Source: Eledone cirrhosa
Taxonomy: Eukaryota
DNA: 64,000 nucleotides
Direction of reading: 5' to 3'
NCBI GenBank assembly: GCA_964016885.1
Contig: OZ024742.1
Span: 71,796,001 to 71,860,000, forward strand
Below the pieces are notes generated by a model that worked only from the letters and a program-made list of their open reading frames with translations, did not search any database and was not told the origin of the DNA. A program made the position numbers and the translations under genes. Of the stretch, positions 6,009 to 64,000 are shown in pieces (the first letter of the stretch is position 1; each line of letters opens with the position of its first letter).

Positions 6009-7550
6009 TTACTCTTCTGTATGAACACCAACATGTATATTTAACTGACTTTTTTGGGAGAATAACTTACCACAGATGTTACAATGATATGGCTTCTCAT
6101 GTATATGAAGACGTTTGTGTATGGTTAAATTACCACTCTGAGAAAATGATTTTCCACAGATATCACAGTGATATGGCTTCTCCCCCGTATGAATGCGTTT
6201 ATGTCTAGTTAGGTCACCTTTTACAGAAAATGAATTACCGCAGATATTGCAGTGATATGGTCTCACTTTTGTATGAATGCATACATGTACAGTTAAGTTA
6301 TTTTCAGTAGAGAATGATTTATCACAAATATCACAGTGATATGGTTTTCCTCCTGTATGAATGAGTTTGTGTTGAGTTAATTGACGATTTTGAGAGAAAG
6401 ATTTACTACAGATATCACAAAGAAATGGCTTCTCTCCTGTATGAATGCGTACATGTATAGTTAAATTATTTAACTGTGAGAATGATTCACCACAGATATC
6501 ACAGTGATATGGTTTTTCTCCTGTATGAATACGTTTGTGTCTAGTTAAGTCACTATTTCCAGTGAATGATTTACCACAGATATCACAGAGATATGGTCTC
6601 AATCCTGTATGAATACGGGTGTGTCTAGCTAGGTCACCTTTTACAGCAAATGATTTACTACAGATATCACAGTGATATGGCTTTTCTCCTGTATGAATAC
6701 GCTTGTGTCTAGTTAGGAAAACATTACCAGAGAATGATTTGCCGCAGACATCACAGGGATATGGTTTCTGTCCAGTATGAATGTGTGTATGTTTAATTAG
6801 GTTACCTTTATCAGAGAATGATTTATCACAGATATCACAGTGATATGGTTTTTCTCCTGTATGAACACGTTTGTGTCTAGTTAGATCACTTTTTCCAGTG
6901 AATGATTTACCACAGATATTGCAGTGATATGGTTTCTCTCCTGTATGAATGTGTGTATGCTTAGTGAGGTTATCTTTTTGAGAGACTGAAATATTACAGA
7001 TATCACTGTGATGTGTTTTCCCTATATGAATGAGAGTGTGTTTAGTTAGGGTAGCTTTATGAGAGAATGATTTACCACAGATATCACAGTGATATGGTTT
7101 CTCTCCTGTATGAATACGTTTGTGTCCAGTTAGGTTACTTTTTTGATAGAATGACTTCTTACAGATATCACAGTGATATGGTTTCTCTCCTGTATGAATG
7201 CGTATATGAGGAGTGAGCTCACTCTTTTGAGAGAATGATTTCTTGCAGATATCACAGTGATATGGTTTCTCTCCTGTATGAATACGTTTGTGAGTAGTTA
7301 GATTACCTTTTTGGTAGAATGATTTCTTACAGATATCGCAGTGATATGGTTTCTCTCCTGTATGAATAAGTTTGTGTATAGTTAGGTTACCTTTTTCAGA
7401 GAATGATTTACCACAAATCTCACAGGGGTATGGTTTCTCTCCTGTCTCCTCTATTATATAACCAGGAAAATCGATACTTTTAGACTCTTTTTTACTAGTA
7501 ATCTGGCTTTCACATAATCCATTTTCCATAATTTTTCTTTCAAAAGACAT
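6009..7550 (-). CDS. C2H2 zinc-finger protein, 513 aa, 17 fingers (6th degenerate), single coding exon
   Basis: Uninterrupted ORF of CxxC...HxxxH repeats with TGEKPY linkers; short N-terminus MENGLCESQ; probable splice acceptor near 7882. Confidence 0.93.
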
Positions 7551-9108
7551 ATATTTTTCTTCTATTTCTATTTATATTTTATTTCTATCGAATATTTCTT
7601 CTGCTATATTTCCATCAACAGTCGATATCTGAAGAGGCTACAAACTACTTTGTAAGTTTAATTAGAATGTAAAATTCGCTTGTATGCATTACAGACAACA
7701 AAATAGAGAAATGTTGCTATTAATTTTAGTTCAGAGAAATATTTCACAGTAATTCTACTATAGGTTTATATAAACAGAGTTATATCTGTTATGAACATCT
7801 TCCTTGAGTCATTAAAAGATGATAAATATTGATGATGGATCTCAAGTAAAACATTCCGTTATACCAATCTCATCTGATATTCTGAAACAACATAGAAAGA
7901 GTATAAGATATAGAGAATACCTAAAAAGTAGAGCTTCAATAGTAGAAATTTTATTACATTTATATATTGATATATACTACAATATAGGAAACACACTGGA
8001 ACACCTCCAACTATTATTTTTTGCCACTTTTATTGGTTATGTCTCACAGCTATAGAGGAAATTAGTGTAAAAGAAAGCTCAATAGATGTGAGCCAGCTTT
8101 GAAGATGACAATGAAGTATGTACATGATTGGTGTGAACATCTATCTCATCTTCACCTTGACCTGTGGTAGTAAAGGTGGTACCAAGATACTTGTATTGTT
8201 CATCTTCTTCCAGAATCTTGCCAGTGAATATGACAGAGATCCTTTTTGAATGTGAGATGCCATCAGACTCGACTACATTGATCTTTATACCAACATATGT
8301 CATGATACACTGAGGTGTTCAATAGCTGACTGAACATAAATTGAAATAACTATCACATGATTATTGGCATAGTCAAGATCAGCGACATTAATGTCTCATC
8401 CCACAAGTTCCTTGATTACAACATTCTATGTGAAAACGTTTGAATCACTGAGTTTTTCTTGACTTTCATTATCATCATCATCATCGTCACTGTTTAACTT
8501 CTATTTTCCATGCTTGCAAGGGTTAGGAGGGTTTTCTTGTATTGAAGCATGATTGGTCAGGTGTCCACATCTTGTATGTATGCACTGTTTTTCGCTTGGT
8601 TTCTATGGCTGGATGCCTTTCCTAATGCCAAACATTTTATAGCATGTATTGGGAGCAGTTTTTTTCGCCTCCAGCACTACCATCTTACAAGGTAGATAGA
8701 GTGATTTTACTGTGGCACCAGCACTACCACTTTACTGGATGGACTGGATGTTTTTTTTATGTGGCATCATTGTATTGTTCTCCTTTGTCCTTGTACTGTC
8801 TCCAACATTTGGGCCCTTGTGACTGAAAGAAATCATAATTATTGACCCTGGCTCCTTATGCTCTCCATTCAAATTTTGCTGAGAACAATCTTGTCTTTCA
8901 TCCTTCCAGGATTGATAAAACAAAGTGCTTGTCATGTACTGGGGTTACTTTAATTAACTAACTTTAGCCCTCAACTTTCTGGCCTTGTGCTTAAATTAGA
9001 AACAATGTCACAGAGAAAGTAAAAGAGAGATTTATAGAGAACTAACATATAGGTTGAAGGGGAAAGGATACATACTAAGCAGAATGGCTGGCAAAGAACA
9101 TGACATGT

Positions 9109-13279: not shown

Positions 13280-16200
13280 GCCTCTGATAAAGCTAGGCGT
13301 GAAAGTCGGATTGCTTTCCGAACACGTCCTGGTCTTCCACCTGATGTCCGCCCAAAGTTGCGTGCTGCAGCTTCCCTAAACCGCAGCTCGGCAGAACATG
13401 AAAGCTTCAGCCTACGAGATGATGGGCAGATATGGAAGTTTGTTAAGGCTGGCGAATCATGGAAAAGAGACACCAGCTGGTCTGAAAACACTGCACCCAC
13501 AACAACTGACAATAAAGAAACTGAAAAAACTCTGGGAAACTAAATCAGAACAACCTGCCATCCCTTGCACATAATCATAGACTGGAATCAAAGTACAAAT
13601 TGTTGTCCTTGAATGCACGTAGTCTATGCAATAAGATTCATCTTTTTGACTCCTACGTCAAAAGTATCAACCCGGACTTCATTACAGTCACGGAAACTTG
13701 GGTACATCCCTTACTCTGCGATGGGGTTTTCAGCATGACTGGCTACAACCTGTTTCGTAAAGACCGCATTAATCGTCGTGGTGGTGGTGTAATGGTCTAC
13801 GTTCGGTCAAATCTGTCGGCAATTCCTTGTGCTGATTTGAACCAATCACAGCAGGAAGTTTTTTTCTGCGATATACGTATGACCATGTCAACACTGCTAC
13901 TTGGAGTCGTTTACCGTCTCCCAAATTACCATCAGGACACTCAACTTTGTGATATCCTCAGAGCTGCTGCCAGGAAGACAGCCACTTATGTTTTCATTGC
14001 AGGTGACTTCAATCACCCTGAGATTGACTGGGAGACCTTTCGTTGGCCGCCAAGTGCAAATGACTTCCTTGAGCTGGTGCTGGACTCGAGTTGGTCCCAG
14101 GTGGTCACCTCCCCAACGAGAGGTGACAACACTTTGGACATACTCTTCACCACTACTCCTGAAACGGTCATTAGTGTTACTGCTGAGGAACCTTTAGGTG
14201 ACTCTGATCATGCTATGATCATTGCCAATATATCCCTCATGGGCAGTAACAAGAACCACAACCATCTCCAAACTGCTCACTTTGACTGGAATAAAGCAGA
14301 CTGGAACTGTTACTGCACCGAGTTGCAATGGCCAAACTGGCTTGAGTTCTACGACTCTGGTGATGTCAACACTGTACTCCAGAACATCCTGAGCTCAATA
14401 TGGACAGCATGTGCAGCATCGGTGCCACGTAAGCAGAAAAAACATCCCAAAAGCGCAATTTGGGAGACTGCAGCAGTCCGTCTTGCCAGAAAAGAACGGC
14501 GCAATGCTGAACGTGAGTACAAACTTCACAAATCAGACATTAATAGGAAGAGGCGAAATAGATCGTCCAACCATCTCAAACAGGTGACAAAAAAGGCAGT
14601 GCTTCAATTTGAGCAGCGCATAGCAACCAGCCCTGACAGTAAGGTGTTCTGGAAGTATGTTCACTCAAAGCAGAGGCCCCACTCTCCAGTTGGTCCTCTT
14701 CGCAATCCCCACACAAGCCAGGTTACTGACGACCCCAAGGAATGCGCAGAGCTCATTGCTGAATGCTATGCAGGTATTTTCACTATTGAAGACCAGAGTG
14801 TGCCACCTCCACCACCTATGTCACCGGACTCTATTACAACCATGGAATTTACACCTGCAATGCTGCGACGTCACCTAAAAAATAAACGCAACCATGCCTC
14901 TCCTGGTCTTGGTGGTGTTACGTACCTGCTTCTTAAACGTGGTGGGTACTTCCTTCTACACCAGTTATCACGCTTCTTCCAATTCTGTCTGAACAACAGT
15001 GCTACTCCAGAACAGTGGAAAACTGCCAGTGTCATTCTTCTGTTCAAAAAGGGTGACCGCACATCACCTGTGAACTATCGTCCAGTCAGTCTTACTAGTT
15101 GCATCGCCAAACTGATGGAATCCTGTGTCAGGGAAACACTTTGGAACTTCTGGAGCTCTCACAGTCTTATCCGGCCCTCGCAATTTGGATTTATCCCCAA
15201 CTCCAGCTGCTGTGATCAACTTATAGAGTTTCTTGAGGACATCACCCGGATCACTGATGGCGGCTCATGGGTAGATGTTGTTTACCTTGACTTTGCGAAG
15301 GCCTTCAATTCTGTGCCACACAAAAGGCTTATGGCAAAACTCTCTGCAATGGGTGTGAAGGATGATCTTTTTAACTGGTTGAAGTCCTTCATTCTCAGTC
15401 GAAGAGAGGTAGTCACGGTTCTGGGACAGCATTCCTCACCATATGAGATGTCATCTGGTGTACCACAGGGATCTGTTCTTGGCCCCCTATTGTTTGTGGC
15501 ATATATTAATGACATAGATGCCAACTTAAGGAATGCCACAGTACTAAAGTACGCAGACGACATCAAGCTGTACCTTGAGATAAAAAGGACAGATCCTGAA
15601 CACTATAGATCTTGCTTGACCTGGACACAATGCAACAATGGATCTCAGACTGGCAACTCAAGCTAGCTGTGGACAAGTGCACCACCATGCATTTTGGGAG
15701 TAAAAACCCAGCGTCCACATACTCCCTCCACACCACTAATATCAAGAAGTCTTCCTGTGAACGTGACCTGGGCATTACGGTCAGCAGCGATTTGTGTTGG
15801 ACGAGGCACGTCTCTAAAATTGTCAAGAAGGCCGAGGGTGTCTTAGCATCACTCAGCAAGACCTTTGTCAGCCGCTCTCCAGATATCTATTTAAGGCTGT
15901 ATACAGCTATGGTGCGACCACACATAGAATTTGCATCACCAGTCTGGAACCCCTATCTTGCTCAGAACATTGACCGCCTGGAAACTGTTCAGAGACGTGC
16001 AACCAAGCGAATACCCTCCATCAGGCATCTACCATACTCTGAGCGCCTTGCTTCCCTGGGCATGGATTCATTGAAGCTCCGACGCCTGGCAACTGACTTG
16101 GTAAACACCCACAAAATTGTTAACCATGTTGCCAACAACAACCCTGAGTACCTTTTTGATTTCCATGTGTCTAACACACGTGGACATGCCCACAAAGTAA

Positions 16201-16460
16201 GAAAACAGCACAGTTCCCATGACTTTCAGAAACATTTTTTCACGCTCAGAGTTGCTGAAGCATGGAACAAACTACCTGCATCAGTTGTTAGCTGTCGAGA
16301 TACTGCATCCTTTAAAGCCTCCATGCTTCCCGAGATCCGCCAACACTACAGCTAACACATACACACATGTACTTCCCTGACATTTGTGTATTATTCTATG
16401 TACTATATTGACGAGTTGTGGTGCACCTGAGCACTTTACACAATAATTTCATTATTATTA
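13280..16460 (+). mobile_element. CR1/L2-like LINE, 5'-truncated in ORF1, ORF2 (APE + RT) nearly intact with one frameshift
   Basis: ORF 13600-15666 has APE motifs (LNARS, VTETW, GDFN, SDH) and RT motifs (YRPVSL, DFAKAF, GVPQGSVLGP, YADD). It continues in ORF 15612-16355 (ERDLG, VRPHIE, QRRATK). Ends cacctgagcact...(att)n. Confidence 0.92.
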
Positions 16461-18860: not shown

Positions 18861-19145
18861 ACTCTTCCTCCGTTATCCTTTCCTTCTTTTTCCCTTTCTT
18901 CCTCTTCCTTCCTTTTTTCCCCTTCCTTCCCTTTTTTCAAATCTTATATATCCTTTTAAATTTATTTATCATATGTTAATTAGTCACTACCTTGTTCACA
19001 AGTGTTTTTTTAAAGCATCATATGATGTATCCCTATTTTTTTTATCTGATGAGAACGCAAATATCGTCCTAGGATGATATTTGTTTTTGAAATGCGCAAA
19101 ATAAAATACATGGAACTTTTTTAACCATCTTTTAATTTCTTCTTA
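16560..19145 (+). mobile_element. Penelope-like element (Naiad-like), 5'-truncated and degenerate
   Basis: Translates SAQLTDLVGIFIL...GGIYRDD (RT), SNHP thumb, CNC..CPL..C and VYECKV...YIGST...FKAR (GIY-YIG). Long pyrimidine-rich 3' UTR ends in a hammerhead-like motif and TA. Confidence 0.85.
19041..19105 (+). ncRNA. Degenerate hammerhead ribozyme in the PLE 3' end
   Basis: tttat-CTGATGA-long stem II (gcaaatatcgtcc/ggatgatatttgt)-GAAA-TGCGCA palindrome-aa-ataaa; the U expected before the cleavage site is A. Confidence 0.55.
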
Positions 19146-19152
19146 TATATAC

Positions 19153-19925
19153 AAAAACAAATAACGAAACGAAATTAAATTTCGTTTCGTTTGTAACTCA
19201 CTTTTGTATGACTGACGCTTAAACAATTAAGTTAAAAATGTACATCCACATATGTATACTGAAATACTAGTATGCATATGAATACACACACGTGTACATA
19301 TGTAGATGTACCGAGTTTTTCACTGGACACTTTACTGTGAGTGTCCAGCTATTCTGTATGTAAACACACAGACAAACCGGTTTTTAGAGTCATACTGGTT
19401 TTCGAGGAAACACCTTTCCTCTATTCTCCAGAAAGCCAGACAGGAATATTGGACTAGTTTCGATGTTGTTACATCTCATCAGCAATATTTACCTATCTTC
19501 CGGCCTTTCTAGAGAATCGTAAAAGCACATATGGTTATATGCTTTTTCTATGAAAATTAGTAGTGGGCAGACTAATTTGCATAGAGCGTGAGTACGTACC
19601 GGTTCAGCGGAGACGATAAAAACAAATAACGAAACGAAATTAAATTTCGTTTCGTTTGTAACTCACTTTTGTATGACTGACGCTTAAACAATTAAGTTAA
19701 AAAATGTACATCCACATATGTATACTGAAATACTAGTATGCATATGAATACACACACGTGTACATATGTAGATGTACCGAGTTTTTCACTGGATACTTTA
19801 CTGTGAGTGTCCAGCTATTCTGTATGTAAACACACAGACAAACCGGTTTTTAGAGTCATACTGGTTTTCGAGGAAACACCTTTCCTCTATTCTCCAGAAA
19901 GCCAGACAGGAATATTGGACTAGTT
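19153..19925 (-). mobile_element. Retrozyme-like tandem repeat, family A (465-nt unit, ~1.7 copies)
   Basis: Unit starts at 19153 and 19618; contains a canonical hammerhead; flanked by (TA)n. Confidence 0.8.
19445..19489 (-). ncRNA. Type I minimal hammerhead ribozyme
   Basis: Minus strand: AATATTG CTGATGA GATGT aaca ACATC GAAA CTAG TC CAATATT. 7-bp stem I, 5-bp stem II, palindromic ACTAGT stem III, GUC cleavage triplet. Confidence 0.92.
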
Positions 19926-19986
19926 ATATTGGACTTAATTATATATATATAAGCCAGACAGGAATATTGGACTAGTTATATTGGAC

Positions 19987-21274
<1,288 letters not shown>

Positions 21275-21275
<1 letters not shown>

Positions 21276-21518
21276 AAATTCCAAACATGGAAGCAGTGCC
21301 TAGAAAGAAAGGGTCTCAAAGTCAACCTGACAAAGACTAAGGTTCTTGTAAGTAAACGAGAAAACAGAACCCAGATCCCCTCAGGGAAATGACCTTGCTC
21401 AGTATGTAGGAAAGATGTAGGTAGGAACTCCATCCTCTGCCCCAAATGCAAACAATGGGTACACAAGAGATATAGTAGGATCTCAGCAAGGCTAACTAAG
21501 AATGTAGGCTTCATATGT
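21275..21518 (+). mobile_element. RTE LINE fragment
   Basis: WKQCLERKGLKVNLTKTKVLV...CSVCRKDVGRNSILCPKCKQWVHKR, same family as 42650-43600. Confidence 0.7.
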
Positions 21519-22175
21519 AGAGAGAAGCTAACAGTCTATTTCACGCTGTTTTGCGTTCATCAGAGTCACGCAGCCCCTGCTTCCACCGAAAATGATAGAA
21601 GCTGGATTCTTATAGAATTCCAGTAATAATCAGGAGCTGATTATATAGAGCGATTGCGGGTTCAGCAAAAATTAGGTATTAGGATTGGTGCTCTGAAATA
21701 GCGATGTATACATGAGTGTATGTATAGTATATTTGGCAATATACCGTATGTTTAATTAAAAACATTTAGAAGACCATACGCTATCGGTTTTAAAGTAGTG
21801 AATATGTCACTTACTTCTTTTCGACGAAAGAAGCTATATTGCCAAATATACTATACATACATTCATGTATACATCGCTATTTCAGAGCACCAATCCTAAT
21901 ACCTAATTTTTGCTGGACTGGCAATCGCTCTGTATAATCAGTTCCTGATTATTACTGGAATTCTATAAGAATCCAGTTTCTATAATTTTCGGCGGAAGCA
22001 GGGGATGCGTGATTCTGATGATCGCCAACCAACTTGAAACAGACTGTTAGCTTCTCTCCCTTCTTTCGCCGAAAAGAAGTAAGTGACATAGTCACTACTT
22101 TAAAGCCGATAGCGTATGGTCTTCTAAATGTTTTTAATTATACATACGGTATATTGCCAAATATACTATACATAC

Positions 22176-22180
<5 letters not shown>
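21519..22180. mobile_element. Retrozyme-like family B: two head-to-head, differently permuted copies of a ~315-nt unit
   Basis: 21519-21834 is the reverse complement of sequence in 21835-22180. The right copy repeats tatattgccaaatatactatacatacatt at both ends (21835, 22150). Each copy has CTGATGA...GAAA. Confidence 0.8.
21525..21570 (-). ncRNA. Minimal hammerhead ribozyme (family B)
   Basis: Minus strand: ct CTGATGA ACGC aaaaca GCGT GAAA TAGACTG TT agct; stem I is short. The plus-strand copy at ~22010-22053 has a decayed stem II. Confidence 0.7.
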
Positions 22181-22211
<31 letters not shown>

Positions 22212-22384
22212 GAAAGGTATAGAAAGTATTGTAGCAAGAAGCCAACAGTATTCCATAATATATATATGGAGTGAAATTTAAGTAAGTTAATTACTATAAT
22301 TTTCTTATTTTACGTCTTTCATATATATATATGAAAAACGTAAAATAAGAAAATTATAGTAATTAACTTACTTACTTAAATTTC

Positions 22385-22466
22385 ACTCCAACTAATTAGT
22401 TTCTGAAAGGGGATTTACATAGTCTTCAAATGGAGATCATGGAGAAACCTTTCTTCATCAGGGAGT
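22385..22466 (-). ncRNA. Type I hammerhead ribozyme (family C, copy 1)
   Basis: Reverse complement of the motif at 23464-23545. Confidence 0.75.
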
Positions 22467-22914
22467 CATTCTCGGCTAAGGTTCCTGGCGATGCGCGGAC
22501 ACAGGAAACTTATACAAAAATAATTCAGTGGATGGAAAAGAGCAAGCACGGACTAAATTCCAAGACATTGAAAAAAATCACTGCCTTCTTGGCCGGTGGC
22601 AAATTCAAAAGAATCAATCACGTGACATCGACGTTAATCAGTGAGGAGTGGGGTTTTAAAAAGACAGTAGCCAAGCCAATACTATGAACCATAGTAGTAA
22701 TTTAGGCAAATTTTTGCTCAACAAAATAATTTGGAGATAATTATAAAGAATTAGTATATCTACCAACATATTTATACAGATGTATACTTACGCTAGCAAA
22801 TATATAGGTTTTGTCTTAGTAACTTTGTGGTTCAATGCAAAGGGATGCAGAACAATTATATGAAAGACGTAAAATAAAAAAAATTATAGTAATTAACTTA
22901 CTTACTTAAATTTC

Positions 22915-22996
22915 ACTCCAACTAATTAGTTTCTGAAAGGGGATATACATAGTCTTCAAATGGAGATCATGGAGAAACCTTTCTTCATCAGGGAGT
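22915..22996 (-). ncRNA. Type I hammerhead ribozyme (family C, copy 2)
   Basis: Reverse complement of the motif at 23464-23545. Confidence 0.75.
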
Positions 22997-23463
22997 CATT
23001 CTCGGCTAAGGTTCCTGGCGATGCGCGGACACAGGAAACTTATACAAAAATAATTCAGTGGATGGAAAAGAGCAAGCGCGGACTAAATTCGAAGACATTG
23101 AAAAAAGTTACTAAGACAAAACCTATATATTTGCTAGCATAAGTATACATCTGTATAAATATGTTGGTAGATATACTAATTCTTTATAATTATCTCCAAA
23201 TTATTTTGTTGAGCAAAAATTTGCCTAAATTACTACTATTGTTCATAGTATTAGCTTGGTTACTGTCTTTTTAACACCCCACTCCTCACTGATTAACCTC
23301 GATGTCACGTGATTGATTCTTTTGAATTTGCCACCGACCAAGAAGGCAGTGATGTTTTCAATGTCTTTGAATTTAGCCCGCGCTTGCTCTTTTCCATCCA
23401 CTGAATTATTTTTTGTATAAGTTTCCTGTGTCCGCGCATCGCCAGGAACCTTAGCCGAGAATG

Positions 23464-23545
23464 ACTCCCTGATGAAGAAAGGTTTCTCCATGATCTCCAT
23501 TTGAAGACTATGTCTATCCCCTTTCAGAAACTAATTAGTTGGAGT
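23464..23545 (+). ncRNA. Type I hammerhead ribozyme (family C, copy 3)
   Basis: ACTCC CTGATGA a GAAAGG...CCTTTC a GAAA CTAATTAG TT GGAGT. Stem I 5 bp, palindromic stem III, GUU triplet. Confidence 0.78.
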
Positions 23546-23710
23546 GATATTTAAGTAAGTAAGTTAATTACTATAATTTTCTTATTTTACGTCTTTCATA
23601 TAATTGTTCTGCATCCCTTTGTATTGAACCACAAAGTTACTAAGACAAAACCTATATATTTGCTAGCGTAAGTATACATCTGTATAAATATGTTGGTAGA
23701 TATACTAATT

Positions 23711-23778
<68 letters not shown>

Positions 23779-24851
23779 AAAAGAGGATGGTTGTGTAGTT
23801 GCTAGTAAAATTAAGCTTTAAAATGGAATGAGAATAAGAAAGCAAGAACGGGGCGGGGAGGGGGGGGGGGTCAGTTTTCCTCATGAGTTGTCTAATGGGG
23901 ATCTCGGATATTTCAACACTTTAAAGACAATATATCTACCCCCAGAGCATTCAATAACAGGGTAAGTTATTGGGAAAAATAGAGGAGGGAGAGAAGGAAA
24001 ATAGAAGGGAAAAGAGGAAAAGGGAAGAAAAGAGAAACAGAAAAAAACAAGAAACTGAAGAATGGGCAGCAACTGAAGGCAAGAGAATCCAAGACCACAG
24101 CGGTAACAGAACATAAGTTCAAGAGCGTGTGATCGAACGAAAAAAGACGTGATCGATCCAAGCGAGTGTAAATGAGAAAAAGACTGCTAGAAGGTCAGGC
24201 GGGGGAAACATTGAGGTGGCAGACAGAGAGAGGGTGAGTGAAAGTGAGAGGAAGAAAGAGAGGAAGAGTAGATAGTAACGAAATAGGTAGGTAGAGGGAG
24301 AGAGAAGACGGGTCACAGCGAAACATGGTAAAATATATGGAGAATAGGATGGCTATGTAGTTGCTAGTAAAGTTAAGCTTAAAAATGGAATGAGAATAAG
24401 AAGAAAGCAAGAACAGGGGACAAAACAAGATCGTAACAACTAACCACAGCAATATTAAATTAAATAACAACTTAACCAGCGACAGACGGATTTTACGAAT
24501 GAGCTAAGCAGATATTTCAATCATATACTAAATTTATAGAAGAACACCCCTCGATTTCCTTGGGAAAAACTTTTTTCCTCTTATTTTTGTGTGCTATCAT
24601 AGCCTCCAAGATACTCACAATTACTTGGTGGCATTTCTTTCGCTACATTAATCATGTTTGGGTCACCAAATGAAGCTAACTTTTATTTATTGTGAAATAA
24701 ATACCAACAATTCTGGTTGAATATATATCACTTCAGCAAAAAGGAAAAAATATGATTACTTTGAATCGTAAATATGTTTGATTATAGTGTTCATGAATGA
24801 ATATAGTGTTCAGTAAAGCCCCAGTGTTGTGCACGAATCCTTTATTATATA

Positions 24852-25554
24852 CTAGCTGAGGTATTCGGCTTCGCTCGGGAGAACAGTTAAGAGAAGACAG
24901 AAAAAGAGAAAACGACTGTATTGGACGTGTTGTCTGGTATGAGTTGGGACCGTAATGTGTGTGTGTATGTTAGAGAACAACCATAAAACTTCCTTATTAG
25001 GCTGGGGGAGTAAACTATCGATTAAATGGTAGCATTGGACTTGGATTTTAAATGTGAAATAACCATAGTCAGTATGATCTTTTTCAGCTCCAAAGGACGT
25101 CATCTGAAACACAGCAATATACCACATAACATTGCTTCTGAAGTGTTTAGCTTCGTTAGTACGGTCTGTAAGTAGTATATGGATAAATGCTGGAGGGTAA
25201 ATTAATTTCAAATAGTATCAATTTTTCTTTGTTCTGTAAAACGAATTTATAAAAGCTAATGCAATATTGTTAAACCTTCCTCGAGACCAAAGGATCTACA
25301 ATTTGAGCCGTTTCTAGACTTTCTTGGGAGGGACGTTACTCTCTCTCTCTTTCTCTGAATATCTAACTCTTTAATTGTATCTCTCTTTCTGTATAATGGC
25401 CTATCTCTCTCTTTCTGCCTCTCCTTCAGTGTCTGTCTCTCTCTTTAGATGTGTGAGTATATATTTGTGTGTGTGTGTGTGTATATGTATGTAGTTTCTG
25501 TGTGATTCAACCAACCAACCAATAAACATCTTTCTTTTATATTATATATATAGA
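24852..25554 (-). mobile_element. Non-autonomous Helitron with a Rep fragment
   Basis: Minus strand A|TCTAT 5' end; 3' cccgagcgaagccg hairpin followed by CTAG|T; internal FQMTSFGA...FKIQVQCYHLIDSLLP Helitron motif. Confidence 0.85.
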
Positions 25555-26221
25555 TATGTAATACATTTATCTAAGTATTCACTGTTGTATAAAAAGAAAT
25601 ACAATACAAACAAAAGCGCAAACAAATATAATACAAAGGGAAATGAAAACAAGCAAAAGGAAAAGAAAGAGTAAAGAAATAAACAAACGGTTAACACACA
25701 CAACTGAGACCACATACAACAAAAGGCAGGCGAAAGTGGTGGACAACTGAGCTGCTACCAGAGTAAAGAGTAAAAGATAACAGTATCGCAAGGAGCACTG
25801 AGAAACCTCTCTAATAATTTTTGAGGCAAGCTAGCACACTCGCGCCATTTCCCCAGGTGATGCGCTGGAACAACGAAGCACCATGGAATGTTCCCGTAAA
25901 TGAAAAGTGACAAGTTCTAGTTGATAGTACATAGCTAGCTGGCTGGTGTAGTAGTAAACCATTATGTATCCAGACTGTGTTGTGTAGCGAAGAGGCAGAG
26001 AACAGTGAGTTAGGGCCAGATGACAGCCTATTTATAATAGCCGATAGTTATTTAACTGATAGATAACAGATGACTCCAGAATATGTTCTCCATCGTATCA
26101 CTAGTGCTGTAAATCCTACCAGCAGGGAAAATTTATCTATTGTCTTCCCTACGTCGCAGATCACTTACTTGGTACCCATGAGAAAACATTTCTATTGCTA
26201 TATATATATATATATATATAT

Positions 26222-26635
26222 ATTAGAATTAGTGCTCTGAAATAGCGATATATATATGAATGTATATATATAGTGTATTTTGCAATACACTGTATGCTTA
26301 ATTAAAAGCATTTTGAAGACCATACGCTATTGTTTTAAAGTAACGACAATGTTGCTTACTTAAATTTTCAGCAAACAAGGGGAGATATGCTGACAGAGCT
26401 CTGTTTCGTACTTTTTGGAATTCTATAAGAATCAAACACATAATTTTCAGCAGACAGAGAGAGTAGTGAGCTTTGATAAGTACCAAAAAGTACAAAACAG
26501 AGCTCTGTCAGCTTATCTCCCTTTGTTTGCTGAAAATTTAAGTAAGCGACATTGTCGCTACTTTAAAACAATAGCGTAAGGTCTTCAAAATGCTTTTAAT
26601 TAAGCATACAGTGTATTGCAAAATACCCTATATAT
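26222..26635. mobile_element. Retrozyme-like element related to family B, head-to-head inverted partial copies
   Basis: 26270-26417 is the reverse complement of ~26483-26632. Shares gtgctctgaaatagcgat, gaagaccatacgctat and ggaattctataagaatc with 21519-22180. Hammerhead-like motif at 26468-26514; (TA)n flanks. Confidence 0.75.
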
Positions 26636-26639
26636 ATAT

Positions 26640-28400
26640 TGTAGTAGGAAGTGAAAGGATTTACCTTTGCGTCTTCACGTGTGTCCGGACTGAATCTCAC
26701 TGCGCGGATGTTCGCCTGTTTTACATCCGGCCAAAGAATATAGGAAGTCTCACACACTCGATCATAGCAGCCATGGACACGCACATCACATGCAGTACAG
26801 CTTTCAGACAAAAGAGAGGCCAAAAGGCCCCTTGCTTCTGGCAAGACCTCCCCTGCACTTCCAGCACCTTAGTCCCACACCACTCCTGATCTCAAGGATC
26901 AATCAACCCATCATATCACTCCATGTCAAAGTCTGTCATCCACTTGGATGAGCGGCATTCGAGTTGCGATCTCTGCACAGTTGAGGTAGTGCTTTCGTTC
27001 TCCTCTTCTCCAAAGTCCTTCAGATCAATGACTCTGAAGACATCCAAGATGTGATGCGGCATTCCATCCACAGACACATTGTTTCGGAAATTTATAGCCA
27101 TTACCATTCCCTTTCCCCATTGAGATGTGCAATGTACATTTGGGGGCTTGACCTAAACATCTTCGCCCACTTGTATGAACGCATTCTTTCTCTCTTCCAC
27201 AGGTTGTTGTAATAACGTGCACAGATGTCGCCATTCATATCTATATATTGCCCTGTGGCACCGACTCCTCAGCCTGCCCCATCCCATTTCCACTCAGCCT
27301 GTACACCACTCTGAAAACGTGGCTCACATTCCACCCACAAAGCATTTCCTTCAGTAGCTCCGAGTGAAACACCCAGCTGTTATCCATTAGCAGTTCATCC
27401 ACAAGGCCCTGCTCCAAGAATATCTCTTTCAGCATCCATGTGTTTCCTCTGTAGTTCCCATCTTCATCTCCCTCCATATTGCCATCTGCCCAGGTCTGCA
27501 ATCGACCATTGATATGTTTCCTATTGGTAGTGTGTCACATCCACTGCCAATTACTTCCAGTTGTGCTCCACTGGGATGTTACCCTTCTTGTGTATGCCCA
27601 GGCTGGGGTTAACAGACTGACATCTGTCGCTACTCCCGACCACTTTCTGGACACTCTGTCTGGTAATGTCAGAGTCGACTTTCCTGGCTAAGAACAGGGT
27701 CCTATTCACTCCCATATGATGCATGTTATGCAACCTCCTCACTTAGCCGACACACTGCAGCTATCCCATTTCTCGCATCCTCTGGTGTTTCCAGCCAGGC
27801 TTTTTTCACCCTGGTTAAGGTGTCTGCCCTATTTTTCTCTGAGACTACACTCAACTTCAGTCTGAACTCAGTAGCCAGCTCTCCCTGAGTTCCCAGGCGG
27901 CGCTTTATTAGCATTTCTGCCACCCCTCTCATTCACACCCTCCTCTCACTGGTAAGCACTGATCTAATTCATCTGAGTATAGTGGCCAAATCAGTACGAA
28001 TCTCTATGGTGCACAGTTCCCATCTCAGGGCAAGATTCACTCCCTTCAGCATGGCGTTCAATTTGGCCACATTGATGTGGTTGCAGTCCGCCTTCTTCTG
28101 AGTCCTTGACCTTGACACCCCCTATTTCCAGAGTGATCCCTAGGGCTATGCTGCTGGCAACACACCATATGGTCCTGTTTTCTGATTTGGGTATGTACAA
28201 ACTTCCTCTCACTGGGTCCTCTGCCTTTACCCTCTCCATGATCTCCCACATCATGGCTACCGTCCTCTCTCCCCAGCTCATCCCGTCTACTCGTCTCAAC
28301 ACAGCTGCATGCTGTTTGGAGCCACCCCGCGATTGTCTTACCTACCTTACTATTCCAACACCAAGTCACTTTCTTTCTCCCTATAGACCTACTCCAACCA
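26640..28400 (-). mobile_element. Gypsy-like LTR retrotransposon 3' remnant (RNase H, integrase, 3' LTR)
   Basis: HNMHHMGVNRTLFLARK...C integrase zinc finger, ELLMDN core; LTR TGTGG(26879)...CTACA(26640). Confidence 0.75.
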
Positions 28401-30265: not shown

Positions 30266-31663
<1,398 letters not shown>

Positions 31664-39639: not shown

Positions 39640-41150
<1,511 letters not shown>

Positions 41151-42644: not shown

Positions 42645-43610
42645 ACCCATGGGAACTCCTCTATACAGATGATCTAACCCTCATAGCTGAATCTATGGGA
42701 AGCATGGTCTAGAATCAAAAGGTCTTAAAGTGAACTTGTCAAAGACTAAAGTCCTAGTATGTAGAAAGGAAAACATGGTCCAGGCCCCTCTGGGAAATGG
42801 CCTTGCTCAGTGTGCAGGAAAGAGGAAGGTAGAAATTCTATTCTATGTCCCAAATGCAAGCTATGGGTACATAAAAGATGTAGTAGGATCACAGGCAGGC
42901 TATCAAAGAACGTAAGTTTTATATGTGGCCGATGTTCAGATGCAGTAAGCAGTAAGTGCCCAGAGGATACTAGCTCCTTCAAATGCCCAGATGGCTCTGT
43001 AGAAATAGTAGACAGTTTCTGTTACCTGGGTGACCAAATCAGCAGTAGAGGAGGGTGTTCCAAAAGTACAGTAGCCAGAGTAAGAATGGGATGGAGACAA
43101 TTCAGAGAGCAATTACCACTGCTAGCTACAAAAGGTATTCCCCTTAAAATGAGGTCAGATTATATGATGCATGTATACAAACAGCAATGCTGCATGGTAG
43201 TGAGACTTGGGTATTGTGTACAGAGGACCTGCAAAGATTGGAAAGAAATGAAGCCTGCATGCTCTGATGGATGTGTAAGAGTAAAATACACGGACAGCAA
43301 AGTGTAAAAGAACTGAGAGAGAAATTGGGCATAAGAGGGATCAGATGTAGCGTGCAAGAGAGGAGGTTGCATTGGTATTGCCATGTGATGTATATGAAGG
43401 ATGACAGAAGGAATCAGATGCAGTGTGCAAGAGGAGATTGCGTTGGTGTGGCCACGTAATGTGTATGAAGGATGACAGCTGTATAAAAAGATGTAGGGTG
43501 ATCAAAGTTGGTGGAAGCTATGGAGTAGGAAGACCTGGGATGAGGTGATAAAAGTTGACCTTGCACAATTGCAACTGTCAAAGACAATGACACAGGCGTT
43601 ATGTAGTAAT
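42645..43610 (+). mobile_element. RTE LINE 3' fragment
   Basis: PWELLYTDDL, CPKCKLWVHKRCS, VDSFCYLGD, ERRLHWYCHV. Confidence 0.8.
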
Positions 43611-46573: not shown

Positions 46574-47833
46574 CTAATTCTCTTGTTTTATTGGTTCAAT
46601 TTCATGTACCTTTTGTTTGTGATTAGTTAAAATTTTCTTCTTAGTGTAACCTTTACCACAGATATCACAATTATATGGTTTTACACCTGTATGAATAGGT
46701 TCATGACGAGTTAAATTCTGTTTATCAGCATATGATTTACCACAAATATCACAACGGTATGGTCTTACACCTTTATGGATACGAACATGAAGTGTTAAAT
46801 GAGTATTCTGAGAGAATGATTTGCCACAGATGTCACAGTGGTATGGTTTCTCACCTGTATGAATACGTACATGTTGAGTTAAATGAGCATTCTGAGAGAA
46901 TGTTCTACCACAAATATCACAGCTGTATGGTTTCTCACCAGTGTGCATACGTATATGAGTAGTTAGTTTATCACTATCAGAGAATCCTTTTCCACAGACA
47001 TCACAGGAGTATGGTTTATCTCCAGTGTGAAGTTGTTTGTGACGAGTTAATTTATTGCATTCAGAGAAAGTTTCTCCACAGATATCACAATGATATGGTT
47101 TCTCACCAGTGTGAATACGTCTATGTATAGTCATACCACCTCTCCCAGAGAATGCTTTCCCACAGATATCACAATGGTATGGTTTTTCAATGGCATGAGT
47201 GTATTTGTGTCTTTTCAAATAAGAACTTCGGGCAAATGTTCTACCACAAACACCACACTGATATGGTTTCTCTCGTGTGTGAATATGCATGTGATCAGTT
47301 AAACTATCACGTAGAGAAAATGTTTTGCCACAGATATCACAATGATGTGGTTTCTCACCTGTGTGAGTATATTTGTGTCTACTTAAATTTCCAAATTGAG
47401 TGAATCCTCTCCCACAAATATCACAGTGGTATGGTTTTTCATCAGAATGAGTACGCTTATGAGTATTCAAAGAACCGCTCTGAGTGAAAGTTTTGTTACA
47501 GATATTGCAGCTGTAGGCTTTCTTGTTTTTTTTATTAAATTTGTGTTTAGTTAAATGAGAACTCTGAGAGAGTACTTTACCACATTCTATATCCTTTTGA
47601 TCTGAATGAATACCTTTAGAAATAGAATAGTTCTTGGCAGCTATTTTACTGTCTTTTTTAGAATATTTCAGTTTTAATCTTGTAAGAAGTACATTATATT
47701 GTGTGAATGTCTTCTTATGTATGTCAAAGTGGTATGATTTCTTCTGTGTATCTCCATATGTATCATGAGATATGTCACTAGGTTCTGACTTTATCTCATC
47801 ACAAACCAGACGTTTGCACAGTTTATCCTCCAT
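46574..47833 (-). CDS. C2H2 zinc-finger protein, 419 aa, 11 intact fingers
   Basis: Intact ORF; N-terminus MEDKLCKRLVCDEIKSEP; TGEKPY-linked fingers. Confidence 0.93.
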   Translation of the reverse strand: MEDKLCKRLVCDEIKSEPSDISHDTYGDTQKKSYHFDIHKKTFTQYNVLLTRLKLKYSKKDSKIAAKNYSISKGIHSDQKDIECGKVLSQSSHLTKHKFNKKNKKAYSCNICNKTFTQSGSLNTHKRTHSDEKPYHCDICGRGFTQFGNLSRHKYTHTGEKPHHCDICGKTFSLRDSLTDHMHIHTREKPYQCGVCGRTFARSSYLKRHKYTHAIEKPYHCDICGKAFSGRGGMTIHRRIHTGEKPYHCDICGETFSECNKLTRHKQLHTGDKPYSCDVCGKGFSDSDKLTTHIRMHTGEKPYSCDICGRTFSQNAHLTQHVRIHTGEKPYHCDICGKSFSQNTHLTLHVRIHKGVRPYRCDICGKSYADKQNLTRHEPIHTGVKPYNCDICGKGYTKKKILTNHKQKVHEIEPIKQEN

Positions 47834-48360
47834 AATCTTCTTATAAATATTCTAAAAACGTCTTATTTTAAAATGTGTCAGTTGTAAAGAAACAGTTTCA
47901 AGATTTTTATTGTGACAGCTTCTCTTCCTAGAATTCAATCTTAGAATCAACAATCAATATTTAAACTGACTTCAGTTCTCAAAATATATCCAGGTATGAA
48001 AAACATTACATATAAACTAACTGAAATTTAATTTCAAATGTTTCTATTATAATCTTTCTATCACCTCAATTTAAATTTCACACCAACTTAATCAAGGTTA
48101 TAGAGAACAGTTACTTGTGTTCTTGATCATGTCAGTCTTCTGGTTTCAATATGACAAATTCCTTGATATATCTCAAATCAACCATCAAAATGTTACCATA
48201 AACCCTGTAATAAGAAAATATAAGGTAGAAAGGACAATGTACAGTTAACATAAAGGTTATTAGAGTGACTTGAGTAGAGACATTGAATGGTAGATTAAGA
48301 AAGAAAACTATGAAAATAGGTACAGAAGAAAGACACAACAGTATGGCTATATAGTGTAAA

Positions 48361-63195: not shown

Positions 63196-64000
63196 CTAAT
63201 TCTCTTGTTTTATTGGTTCAATTTCATGTACCTTTTGCTTGTGATTAGTTAAAATCTTCTTCTTAGTATAACTTTTACCACAGATATCACAATGATATGG
63301 TTTTACACCTGTATGAGTAAATTTGTGACGATTTAAACTCTGAATAATAGCAAATGATTTGCCACAAATATCACAACAGTATGGTTTCTCACCTGTGTGA
63401 ACAGGTTTATGACGAGTTAAATTCTGATTATCAGCATATGATTTACCACAAATATCACAATGGTATGGTCTTACACCAGTGTGAATTCGTATATGGATTG
63501 TTAAATGACCTTTCTGAGAGAATGATTTGCCACAGATATCACAGTGGTATGGATTATCTCCTGTATGAATACGTACATGTTGAGTTAAATGAGAATTCTG
63601 AGAGAATGTTTTACCACAAATATCACAGCGGTATGGTTTCTCACCAGTGTGCATACGAATGTGTGTAGTTAGTTTATCACTATTAGAAAATCTTTTCCCA
63701 CAGACATCACAGGGGTATGGTTTATCTCCAGTGTGAAGTTGTTTGTGACGAGTTAACTTATTATATTCAGAGAAAGTTTCTCCACAGATATCACAATGAT
63801 ATGGTTTCTCACCAGTGTGAATACGTCTATGTATAGTCATACCACCTCTCCCAGAGAATGCTTTCCCACAGATATCACAATGGTATGGTTTTTCAATGGC
63901 ATGAGTGTATTTGTGTCTTTTCAAATAAGAACTTCGGGCAAATGTTCTACCACAAACACCACACTGATATGGTTTCTCTTCAGTGTGAATATGCATGTGA
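63196..64000 (-). CDS. C2H2 zinc-finger protein, 5' part outside the window, 9 fingers visible; close paralog of 46574-47833
   Basis: Open frame to the window edge; identical C-terminus [19 protein letters not shown]; shared 3' UTR. Confidence 0.9.
   Translation of the reverse strand, partial: HMHIHTEEKPYQCGVCGRTFARSSYLKRHKYTHAIEKPYHCDICGKAFSGRGGMTIHRRIHTGEKPYHCDICGETFSEYNKLTRHKQLHTGDKPYPCDVCGKRFSNSDKLTTHIRMHTGEKPYRCDICGKTFSQNSHLTQHVRIHTGDNPYHCDICGKSFSQKGHLTIHIRIHTGVRPYHCDICGKSYADNQNLTRHKPVHTGEKPYCCDICGKSFAIIQSLNRHKFTHTGVKPYHCDICGKSYTKKKILTNHKQKVHEIEPIKQEN

Follow-up and report, generated by a model that had tools for sequence, protein, structure and literature searches.

We examined a stretch of 64,000 nucleotides of the Eledone cirrhosa genome (contig OZ024742.1, positions 71,796,001 to 71,860,000 of the forward strand), referred to below as the window, in which two copies of a short repeat lie head-to-head between runs of TA dinucleotides (Table 1). 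Positions in the repeat are given as unit 1–315, corresponding to window positions 21835–22149, and arms were assigned by BLAST of this 315-nt monomer and its doubled form. The cassette had been described in the original prediction as two circular permutations of one unit joined head-to-head, and the match of the left arm to the doubled monomer (E = 3e-135, far above chance) bears this out. The ends of the left copy are adjacent in the right copy, as proposed, except for one base (unit 225, window 22059). Likewise, the proposed ~30 nt of terminal redundancy in the right copy is present as 29 identical bases, and can be extended to 40 nt at 93% identity into the TA run. The CTGATGA and GAAA elements are found in both copies. 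The arms are 93% alike, and their differences amount to ~6% (16 of 269 non-CpG sites). Two features absent from the earlier description are a LINE fragment at the 3′ end of the left arm and the TA runs that flank the whole cassette.

Table 1. Features of the head-to-head cassette, in window positions.
Feature	Position	Strand	Description
(TA)n run	21183–21273		Left flank of cassette; target microsatellite, probably its left half
LINE ORF fragment	21273–21520	+	Internal, 248 bases, from the RT end to a PHD-like finger, both ends cut; 94–95% identical to other LINE copies
Left arm	21520–21833	-	Unit 226–315–1–224, unbroken, 314 of 315 bases, 93.3% identity (BLAST against monomer and doubled monomer); 3′ end at unit 224, which is atypical
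Left hammerhead motif, type I	21520–21577	-	Core CTGATGA 21563–21557, GAAA 21542–21539, helix II ACGC/GCGT; predicted cut after GTT between 21530 and 21529; A-C mismatch in helix I, distal strand cut short
Hairpin, unit 226–245	21814–21833	-	Site of the left arm's 5′ end; family hot spot for 5′ ends
Head-to-head junction	21834		One base between the two 5′ ends, assigned to neither arm
Right arm	21835–22178	+	Unit 1–315 followed by unit 1–29; ends at the family's short 3′ end (BLAST, direct reading)
Tail, unit 33–67	21867–21901	+	~35 nt between the two family 3′ end sites; minus-arm equivalent 21711–21677
Right hammerhead motif	22001–22060	+	CTGATGA 22015–22021, GAAA 22036–22039, helix III a palindrome, ACAG-A-CTGT; cleavage predicted between 22048 and 22049, after GTT; substitutions interrupt helices I and II
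Terminal redundancy	22150–22178	+	29 bases identical to 21835–21863 (direct reading)
(TA)n run	22179–22209		Right flank of cassette; target microsatellite, probably its right half

Public contigs match parts of this locus. One contig of 93 bases, seen in two runs of one study, possibly on the assembly's own sample, is identical to 21457–21549 and spans the junction of LINE fragment and left arm, with ~30 bases on one side, just below the 31 required. Others show loose ends running into TA at 21871, 21901 and 21677. Among the matches listed in four contig runs, none bridges the junction at 21833–21835.

Related copies were surveyed in the 3.0 Gb genome. The monomer query returned 2651 first-look candidates, 40 of which were scored, and this number is a rough lower limit rather than a count of copies. 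With three queries placed in different registers, 79 distinct loci were recovered, holding 125 arms of at least 80 nt, and addition of a fourth, long query (729 bases) brought the set to 98 loci and 170 arms. These sampled loci are the best-scoring hits, and are biased towards long, young copies and not random; the median non-CpG distance of copies to the majority letter is 3.7%. The unit is non-coding, with a longest stop-free frame of 76 codons, a period of 315 nt and no LTR. Copies are mostly dispersed in microsatellites at lengths of 0.3–2 units, about half of them in head-to-head pairs, and no target duplication was seen in the family copies. A literature search found no report of the 315-base family, which is a weak negative.

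The ends of the copies follow a consistent pattern. In 107 of 125 arms the 3′ end lies within unit 27–77, compared with 20 expected if ends were uniform, and contact with a microsatellite, such as the TA run to the left of the cassette, is seen in 82 of these 107 normal-end arms versus 4 of the 18 others. There are two 3′ end modes ~35 nt apart, one after ...TTCAT (unit ~32) and one after ...CCTAAT (unit ~67), and each moves by a few bases in agreement with the target (TA, CA or CAT). The 5′ ends are scattered over the entire unit, with an excess in unit 222–240 (19/133 versus 8.0 expected); aberrant 3′ ends are also enriched in this region (unit 222–245; 6/20 versus 2.1 expected). No pile-up of 5′ ends occurs at the predicted hammerhead cut site (3/133 versus 3.4 expected). 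More than half of the arms (68/125) exceed one unit, and the longest whose laps have decayed independently reaches 3.5 units (L124). The cut site is crossed two or three times by 32 of 133 arms, a proportion enriched by the choice of queries. Unlike such tandem copies with two or more hammerheads, each arm of the cassette holds one, and the ~35-nt tail is internal in both.

With fixed 3′ ends and variable 5′ ends, the copies belong neither with MITEs nor with freely permuted monomers. Free permutation as a rule for the family fails on the survey of genomic copies, and the fixed linear ends of a MITE are likewise not found, since 5′ ends occur across the whole unit and only one end is fixed. 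The suggested reverse transcription of a circular or concatemeric template fares better in part: the template was longer than the unit, as the multi-unit arms indicate, but free permutation does not hold and the register of the left arm is no proof of a circle. Together, the ends point to 5′-truncated products that begin at fixed internal sites, on a template exceeding one unit. A separate process is apparent at four loci (L036, L122, L123 and L125), where laps of long arms have numerous private mutations in common, nested in a way that indicates DNA-level tandem duplication after insertion.

Back-to-back pairs make up 42 of the 79 loci, and 52 were found in the larger set of 98. Where both ends fall in the normal zone, one end is short and the other long in 34 of 37 pairs (permutation p = 5e-5); in the remaining 15 of the 52 pairs, one end or both are aberrant. 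The same rule is kept by a sister family, represented at window positions 26221–26640, in all seven pairs for which both ends were listed. Among the 52 pair junctions, 26 overlap by 1–20 nt, six are blunt and 20 carry 1–35 inserted nucleotides. Arm partners share subfamily markers in 189 of 230 comparisons, versus 52% between loci, and rare variants are common to both arms at 1.97 per 1000 sites, compared with 0.43 between loci. Unless gene conversion has homogenised them, paired arms therefore share a single template or source. Short- and long-ended arms do not differ in length (18/34, p = 0.64); a negative length correlation between paired arms was disregarded, since it probably results from the way queries were selected. 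The sister pair itself has a period of ~317–320, is 74–80% alike, and carries a hammerhead with a U3-A8 core, a G-C closed helix II and a longer palindromic helix III, along with the identical two 3′ ends; its query gave 2395 first-look candidates.

These features point to Penelope-like elements (PLEs) as the likely mover of the back-to-back pair. PLE insertions are described with an inverted, 5′-truncated copy adjacent, a tail of 30–40 bp that is often present at one end only, and (TA)n targets (Craig, 2021; PMC8557442). The PLE protein, a predicted dimer, is reported to cut and extend both strands, initiating at two sites inside the RNA that delimit the tail (Frangieh, 2024; PMC11167929). 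Autonomous PLEs are present in the genome: a search for GIY-YIG domains gave 10,597 candidates, and among the 150 scored were frames of up to 938 aa with Pfam hits to RT and, at the C terminus, to a GIY-YIG nuclease preceded by a cysteine-rich linker. By comparison with the description in PMC8557442, and not by a tree, this linker suggests membership of the Neptune or Nematis clades. One autonomous family has 3′ ends ~121 and 161–183 nt after its own hammerhead cut, compared with 133 and 168 nt in the 315-base family, and two of its kind form a head-to-head pair with one short and one long 3′ end (L184:3387 on the minus strand and L184:6398 on the plus strand). Another PLE family (L151, L152, L154, L162, L201 and others) carries a hammerhead-like core, TTGATAA (U3-A8), with a CCGG palindrome 3′ of the GIY-YIG frame. 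We found no PLE sharing sequence with the unit in the 60 GIY-YIG loci fetched, out of 150 listed and 10,597 candidates; BLAST and local alignment of these gave nothing above shuffles except family copies inserted near PLEs. The partner is thus assigned by anatomy.

Given this anatomy, we consider it quite probable that the cassette is a decayed hammerhead-bearing non-LTR retrozyme, inserted into (TA)n by a PLE reverse transcriptase-endonuclease, and probably copied from an RNA monomer in circular form. Where a copy holds two hammerheads, its transcripts would self-cleave to a monomer, which might then be closed to a putative circle. The PLE enzyme would cut both strands of a TA run, and each freed DNA end would prime cDNA synthesis at one of the two internal start sites of the RNA. 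Each cDNA could then run back through the unit and across the hammerhead cut site, stopping at variable positions and often at the hairpin, and the joining of the two cDNA ends, often through short overlaps, would produce the back-to-back pair. On this model, the pairing of short and long ends ties two RT start sites known in vitro to both DNA strands of a single in vivo break. The family's thousands of short copies allow the PLE end rule to be counted.

The hammerhead is a type I motif, and in 96 aligned copies 89% of the cells are paired. Its helix I, GGCT/AGCT, is extended by GGGAG/CTCCC through an internal loop; helix II is (A or T)CGC/GCGT and helix III is the palindromic ACAG-A-CTGT. Cleavage is predicted at unit 214, after GTC or GTT, and GUU precedes the cut in 49 of the 96 rows. 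Two linked types can be distinguished among 163 motifs, one with A-U at the helix II base and GUC (54 motifs) and one with U-U and GUU (80 motifs). The core and stems are kept in 59 of 150 sampled motifs, and neither copy in the cassette is among them. The U-U/GUU combination is the commonest intact form (28/59), and it may cleave poorly.

Comparison with the sister family supports the view that the hammerhead fold has been kept by compensatory changes. Between the two families the core pair C3-G8 is replaced by U3-A8 and three helix II pairs are changed on both sides, so that 96% of cells remain paired, compared with 10–39% in slid controls. The alignment holds 16 hand-chosen rows from two families, and these changes therefore count as four events and not 27. 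Covariation within the 315-base family alone was at shuffle level, as expected for decaying copies. At the gathering score, Rfam found nothing in the window; the left motif matched the HH9 model at 17 bits (E = 0.4), below that score, and matches to miRNA families were rejected because they reflect the inverted arms. Minimum-energy folds of the hammerhead region did not yield the active fold, with window copies not significant (z = -0.7 and +0.8), and a hammerhead pattern search of metagenome contigs gave no matches. When 14 genomic monomers were folded as circles, 60–67% of bases were paired, with z scores of -3.0 to -13 against 15 shuffles each. The unit is hairpin-rich on both strands, and because the antisense strand folds about as well, this stability is not strand-specific evidence.

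We considered two forms of template longer than one unit, a circle and a linear multimer. In the least biased set of arms, picked by the 3′ segment alone, 26 of 32 cross the cut site, and 172 of 174 crossings show no deletion, which argues against jumps of the enzyme from end to end of successive templates. A cleaved linear monomer would cap the cDNA at 133–168 nt and pile up 5′ ends at unit 215, contrary to what was observed. After the four loci with post-insertion duplications were dropped, laps within an arm differ at 5.1% of sites (143/2819), arms at the same lap at 5.6% (227/4032) and crosswise comparisons at 5.4%, over 26 loci. The upper 95% bound on any excess divergence between laps is ~0.6 percentage points, as an estimate over sites that are not independent. 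Because lap and arm divergence are equal, the laps were alike at insertion, a result predicted by a circle and by a young, uniform multimer alike. Subfamily markers (units 188, 214 and 291) differ between laps in 16 of 146 comparisons, which is somewhat above decay alone and speaks against one circle as template for every arm; some arms may therefore be chimeric. No editing scar of the A-to-I type was detected, as A>G and T>C occur at 9.55 and 9.48 per 1000 with no strand bias.

The strongest competitor to the circle retains PLE-driven insertion and supposes that the template was a linear transcript left uncleaved, made from a multi-unit locus that is young, uniform and renewed by tandem duplication of DNA. 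To this reading we assign somewhat less than an even chance. It agrees with the finding that uncleaved RNA is the dominant PLE substrate in vitro (PMC11167929), and the loci with post-insertion duplications could renew multimeric sources; the prevalence of weak-looking hammerhead variants and the differences of some laps at subfamily markers also fit. However, no array longer than 3.5 units was present among the 40 scored of 4670 candidates from the 729-base query, and no 5′ boundary common to the long arms was found. The source would also have to be nearly uniform, given that laps are no more different than arms, and the ribozyme core kept by compensatory change speaks against this reading too. 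On balance we lean slightly towards a circle over a linear multimer on these sequence comparisons. Copying of circles by PLE enzymes was proposed in 2014 (PMC4209133) and 2020 (PMC7229834), and no demonstration was found in the literature examined; the 315-base unit offers a small substrate for asking whether such enzymes do so.

A more specific scenario, which we offer as tentative and rather unlikely in its entirety, is that a dimeric PLE enzyme engages one circular RNA at two starts 35 bases apart, one per cut strand, and rolls round it, with the left arm representing a full lap after a template switch from the LINE. If true, a dimeric enzyme acting on a circle would have left its genomic record in three features: the pairing of short with long ends, the rare variants that arms have in common, and a divergence that is equal for laps and for arms.

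The left arm of the cassette warrants separate consideration. With a short end and a length of 1.09 units, the right arm is a normal product; by the pairing rule, the left arm was expected to end at the long site, unit 67, beside the left TA run. Instead, the LINE piece sits between that run and unit 224. It has no continuation within window positions 19001–28000, and its homologue at 42765–43304 matches Pfam PHD. Among the 40 scored of 3453 candidates, the junction between LINE and arm is unique, and neither transduction nor segmental duplication of it was found. This end could have arisen when the enzyme, having first copied a LINE template, switched to the unit, or else by subsequent deletion or repair with loss of the last ~157 bases.

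The register of the left arm could also be explained if each arm were a freely permuted monomer copied from a circle by random entry, the left arm being exactly one lap, and we judge this improbable. The length of 314 of 315 bases is what such an origin would give, a locus with a similar arm is known (L049, unit 230–233, 319 nt), and a switch from LINE to circle could yield one full lap. As a rule for the family, free permutation is refuted by the fixed 3′ ends, and L049 came from a query that itself had this register. As unit 222–245 attracts both 5′ ends and aberrant 3′ ends, the fact that the arm falls one base short of a full unit carries little weight. The left register is weak evidence for a circle because its atypical 3′ end adjoins the LINE piece near this breakpoint hot spot.

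There is very little probability that the unit is a mere terminal repeat (pLTR) of a 5′-truncated autonomous PLE. In its anatomy, a hammerhead with two 3′ ends after it, the unit resembles a pLTR, and retrozymes are derived from pLTRs by Li (2026; bioRxiv 10.64898/2026.07.22.740005). Descent of the unit from a pLTR is likely. However, arms longer than one unit re-enter the unit and not an ORF, the stop-free frames are short, and none of the PLE 3′ regions examined matches the unit. Least credible of all is a MITE- or satellite-like DNA repeat paired by DNA-level inverted duplication or by assembly fold-back: the hairpin-rich strands and the DNA-level duplications in the family are compatible with it, but it is refuted by the short/long rule and the variable 5′ ends, with only a single fixed end, single copies that lack terminal inverted repeats, strand-specific hammerhead covariation, and arms that differ from one another, end by rule at different sites and recur as pairs on many contigs.

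The 315-base family is new, and its kind, the non-LTR retrozyme, is already known; the retrozyme class, the proposed circle and the link to PLEs are all in print (PMC7229834; bioRxiv 10.64898/2026.07.22.740005; PMC4209133). What is added is modest: a count behind the short/long rule, and the lap test. As in metazoan non-LTR retrozymes, the unit is non-coding, within 150–450 bp and below 50% GC, carries a type I hammerhead, has a stable predicted fold and no LTR, and occurs alongside PLEs (PMC7229834; bioRxiv 10.64898/2026.07.22.740005). The axolotl retrozyme HHR_Amex2 shares the U-U mismatch at the helix II base, and its activity is described as modest (PMC7229834). Unlike the metazoan retrozymes described there, the present family occurs mostly as dispersed copies and not as long tandem arrays. 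The terms 'inverted' and 'microsatellite' are absent from the main text of Cervera and de la Pena (2020; PMC7229834).

With GIY-YIG PLEs the family shares 5′ truncation, partial tandem structure, an inverted 5′-truncated neighbour, a tail of 30–40 nt confined to one end, targets that are AT-rich or (TA)n, and two RT starts downstream of the hammerhead (PMC8557442; PMC11167929). Unlike PLEs, the unit has no ORF, and its ends match the target repeat by 2–3 bases or more, whereas the anole PLE is reported to start at a site non-homologous to the cut DNA (PMC11167929). The palindromic helix III, suited to a dimeric fold, resembles that of PLE-type hammerheads, in which U3-A8 core covariation, here present in the sister family, is also known, and opposite-strand motif pairs 100–700 bp apart have been noted (PMC4209133). 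In contrast to the usual PLE hammerheads, the motif lacks the G10.1-C11.1 pair (A-U or U-U here) and has GUU at the cut in half of the copies (PMC4209133). Like non-autonomous Chlamys elements such as MRC1, the family appears as a non-coding PLE dependant with pLTR-like partial tandems; elements of the MRC1 type usually match an autonomous family at their 3′ end, according to the account in PMC8557442, and no such match was found for the 315-base unit among the 60 loci examined.

Other repeats lie around the cassette and in the flanks of the surveyed loci. To its right, positions 22267–23717 hold an inverted and tandem family in TA runs, with a period of 529–530 bases and a TTGAAGA...GAAA motif with palindromic CTAATTAG that could be a U3-G8 hammerhead variant. 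To its left, a 465-base direct repeat at 19153–19925 includes, at 19482, a minus-strand hammerhead core, and a minus-strand frame of 268 aa at 20374–21177, which has no Pfam hit, ends at the left TA run; by eye this frame resembles a fragment of a Tc1/mariner transposase. At least six further hammerhead families occur in the fetched flanks (L011, L034, L057, L021, L125, L179, L181 and others), with short palindromic helix III sequences of CTAG, GTAC, GAAC, CATG, CG and CACTG, and several of them have U at the cut position and U-U at the helix II base. Elsewhere in the window are a LINE with endonuclease and RT domains in a 713-aa frame (13525–16352, plus strand), and C2H2 zinc-finger arrays with an 84-base period at 6012–7571 and 46577–47851 (minus strand), to which the repeats at 30300–31460, 39730–40190 and 63270–64000 are similar.
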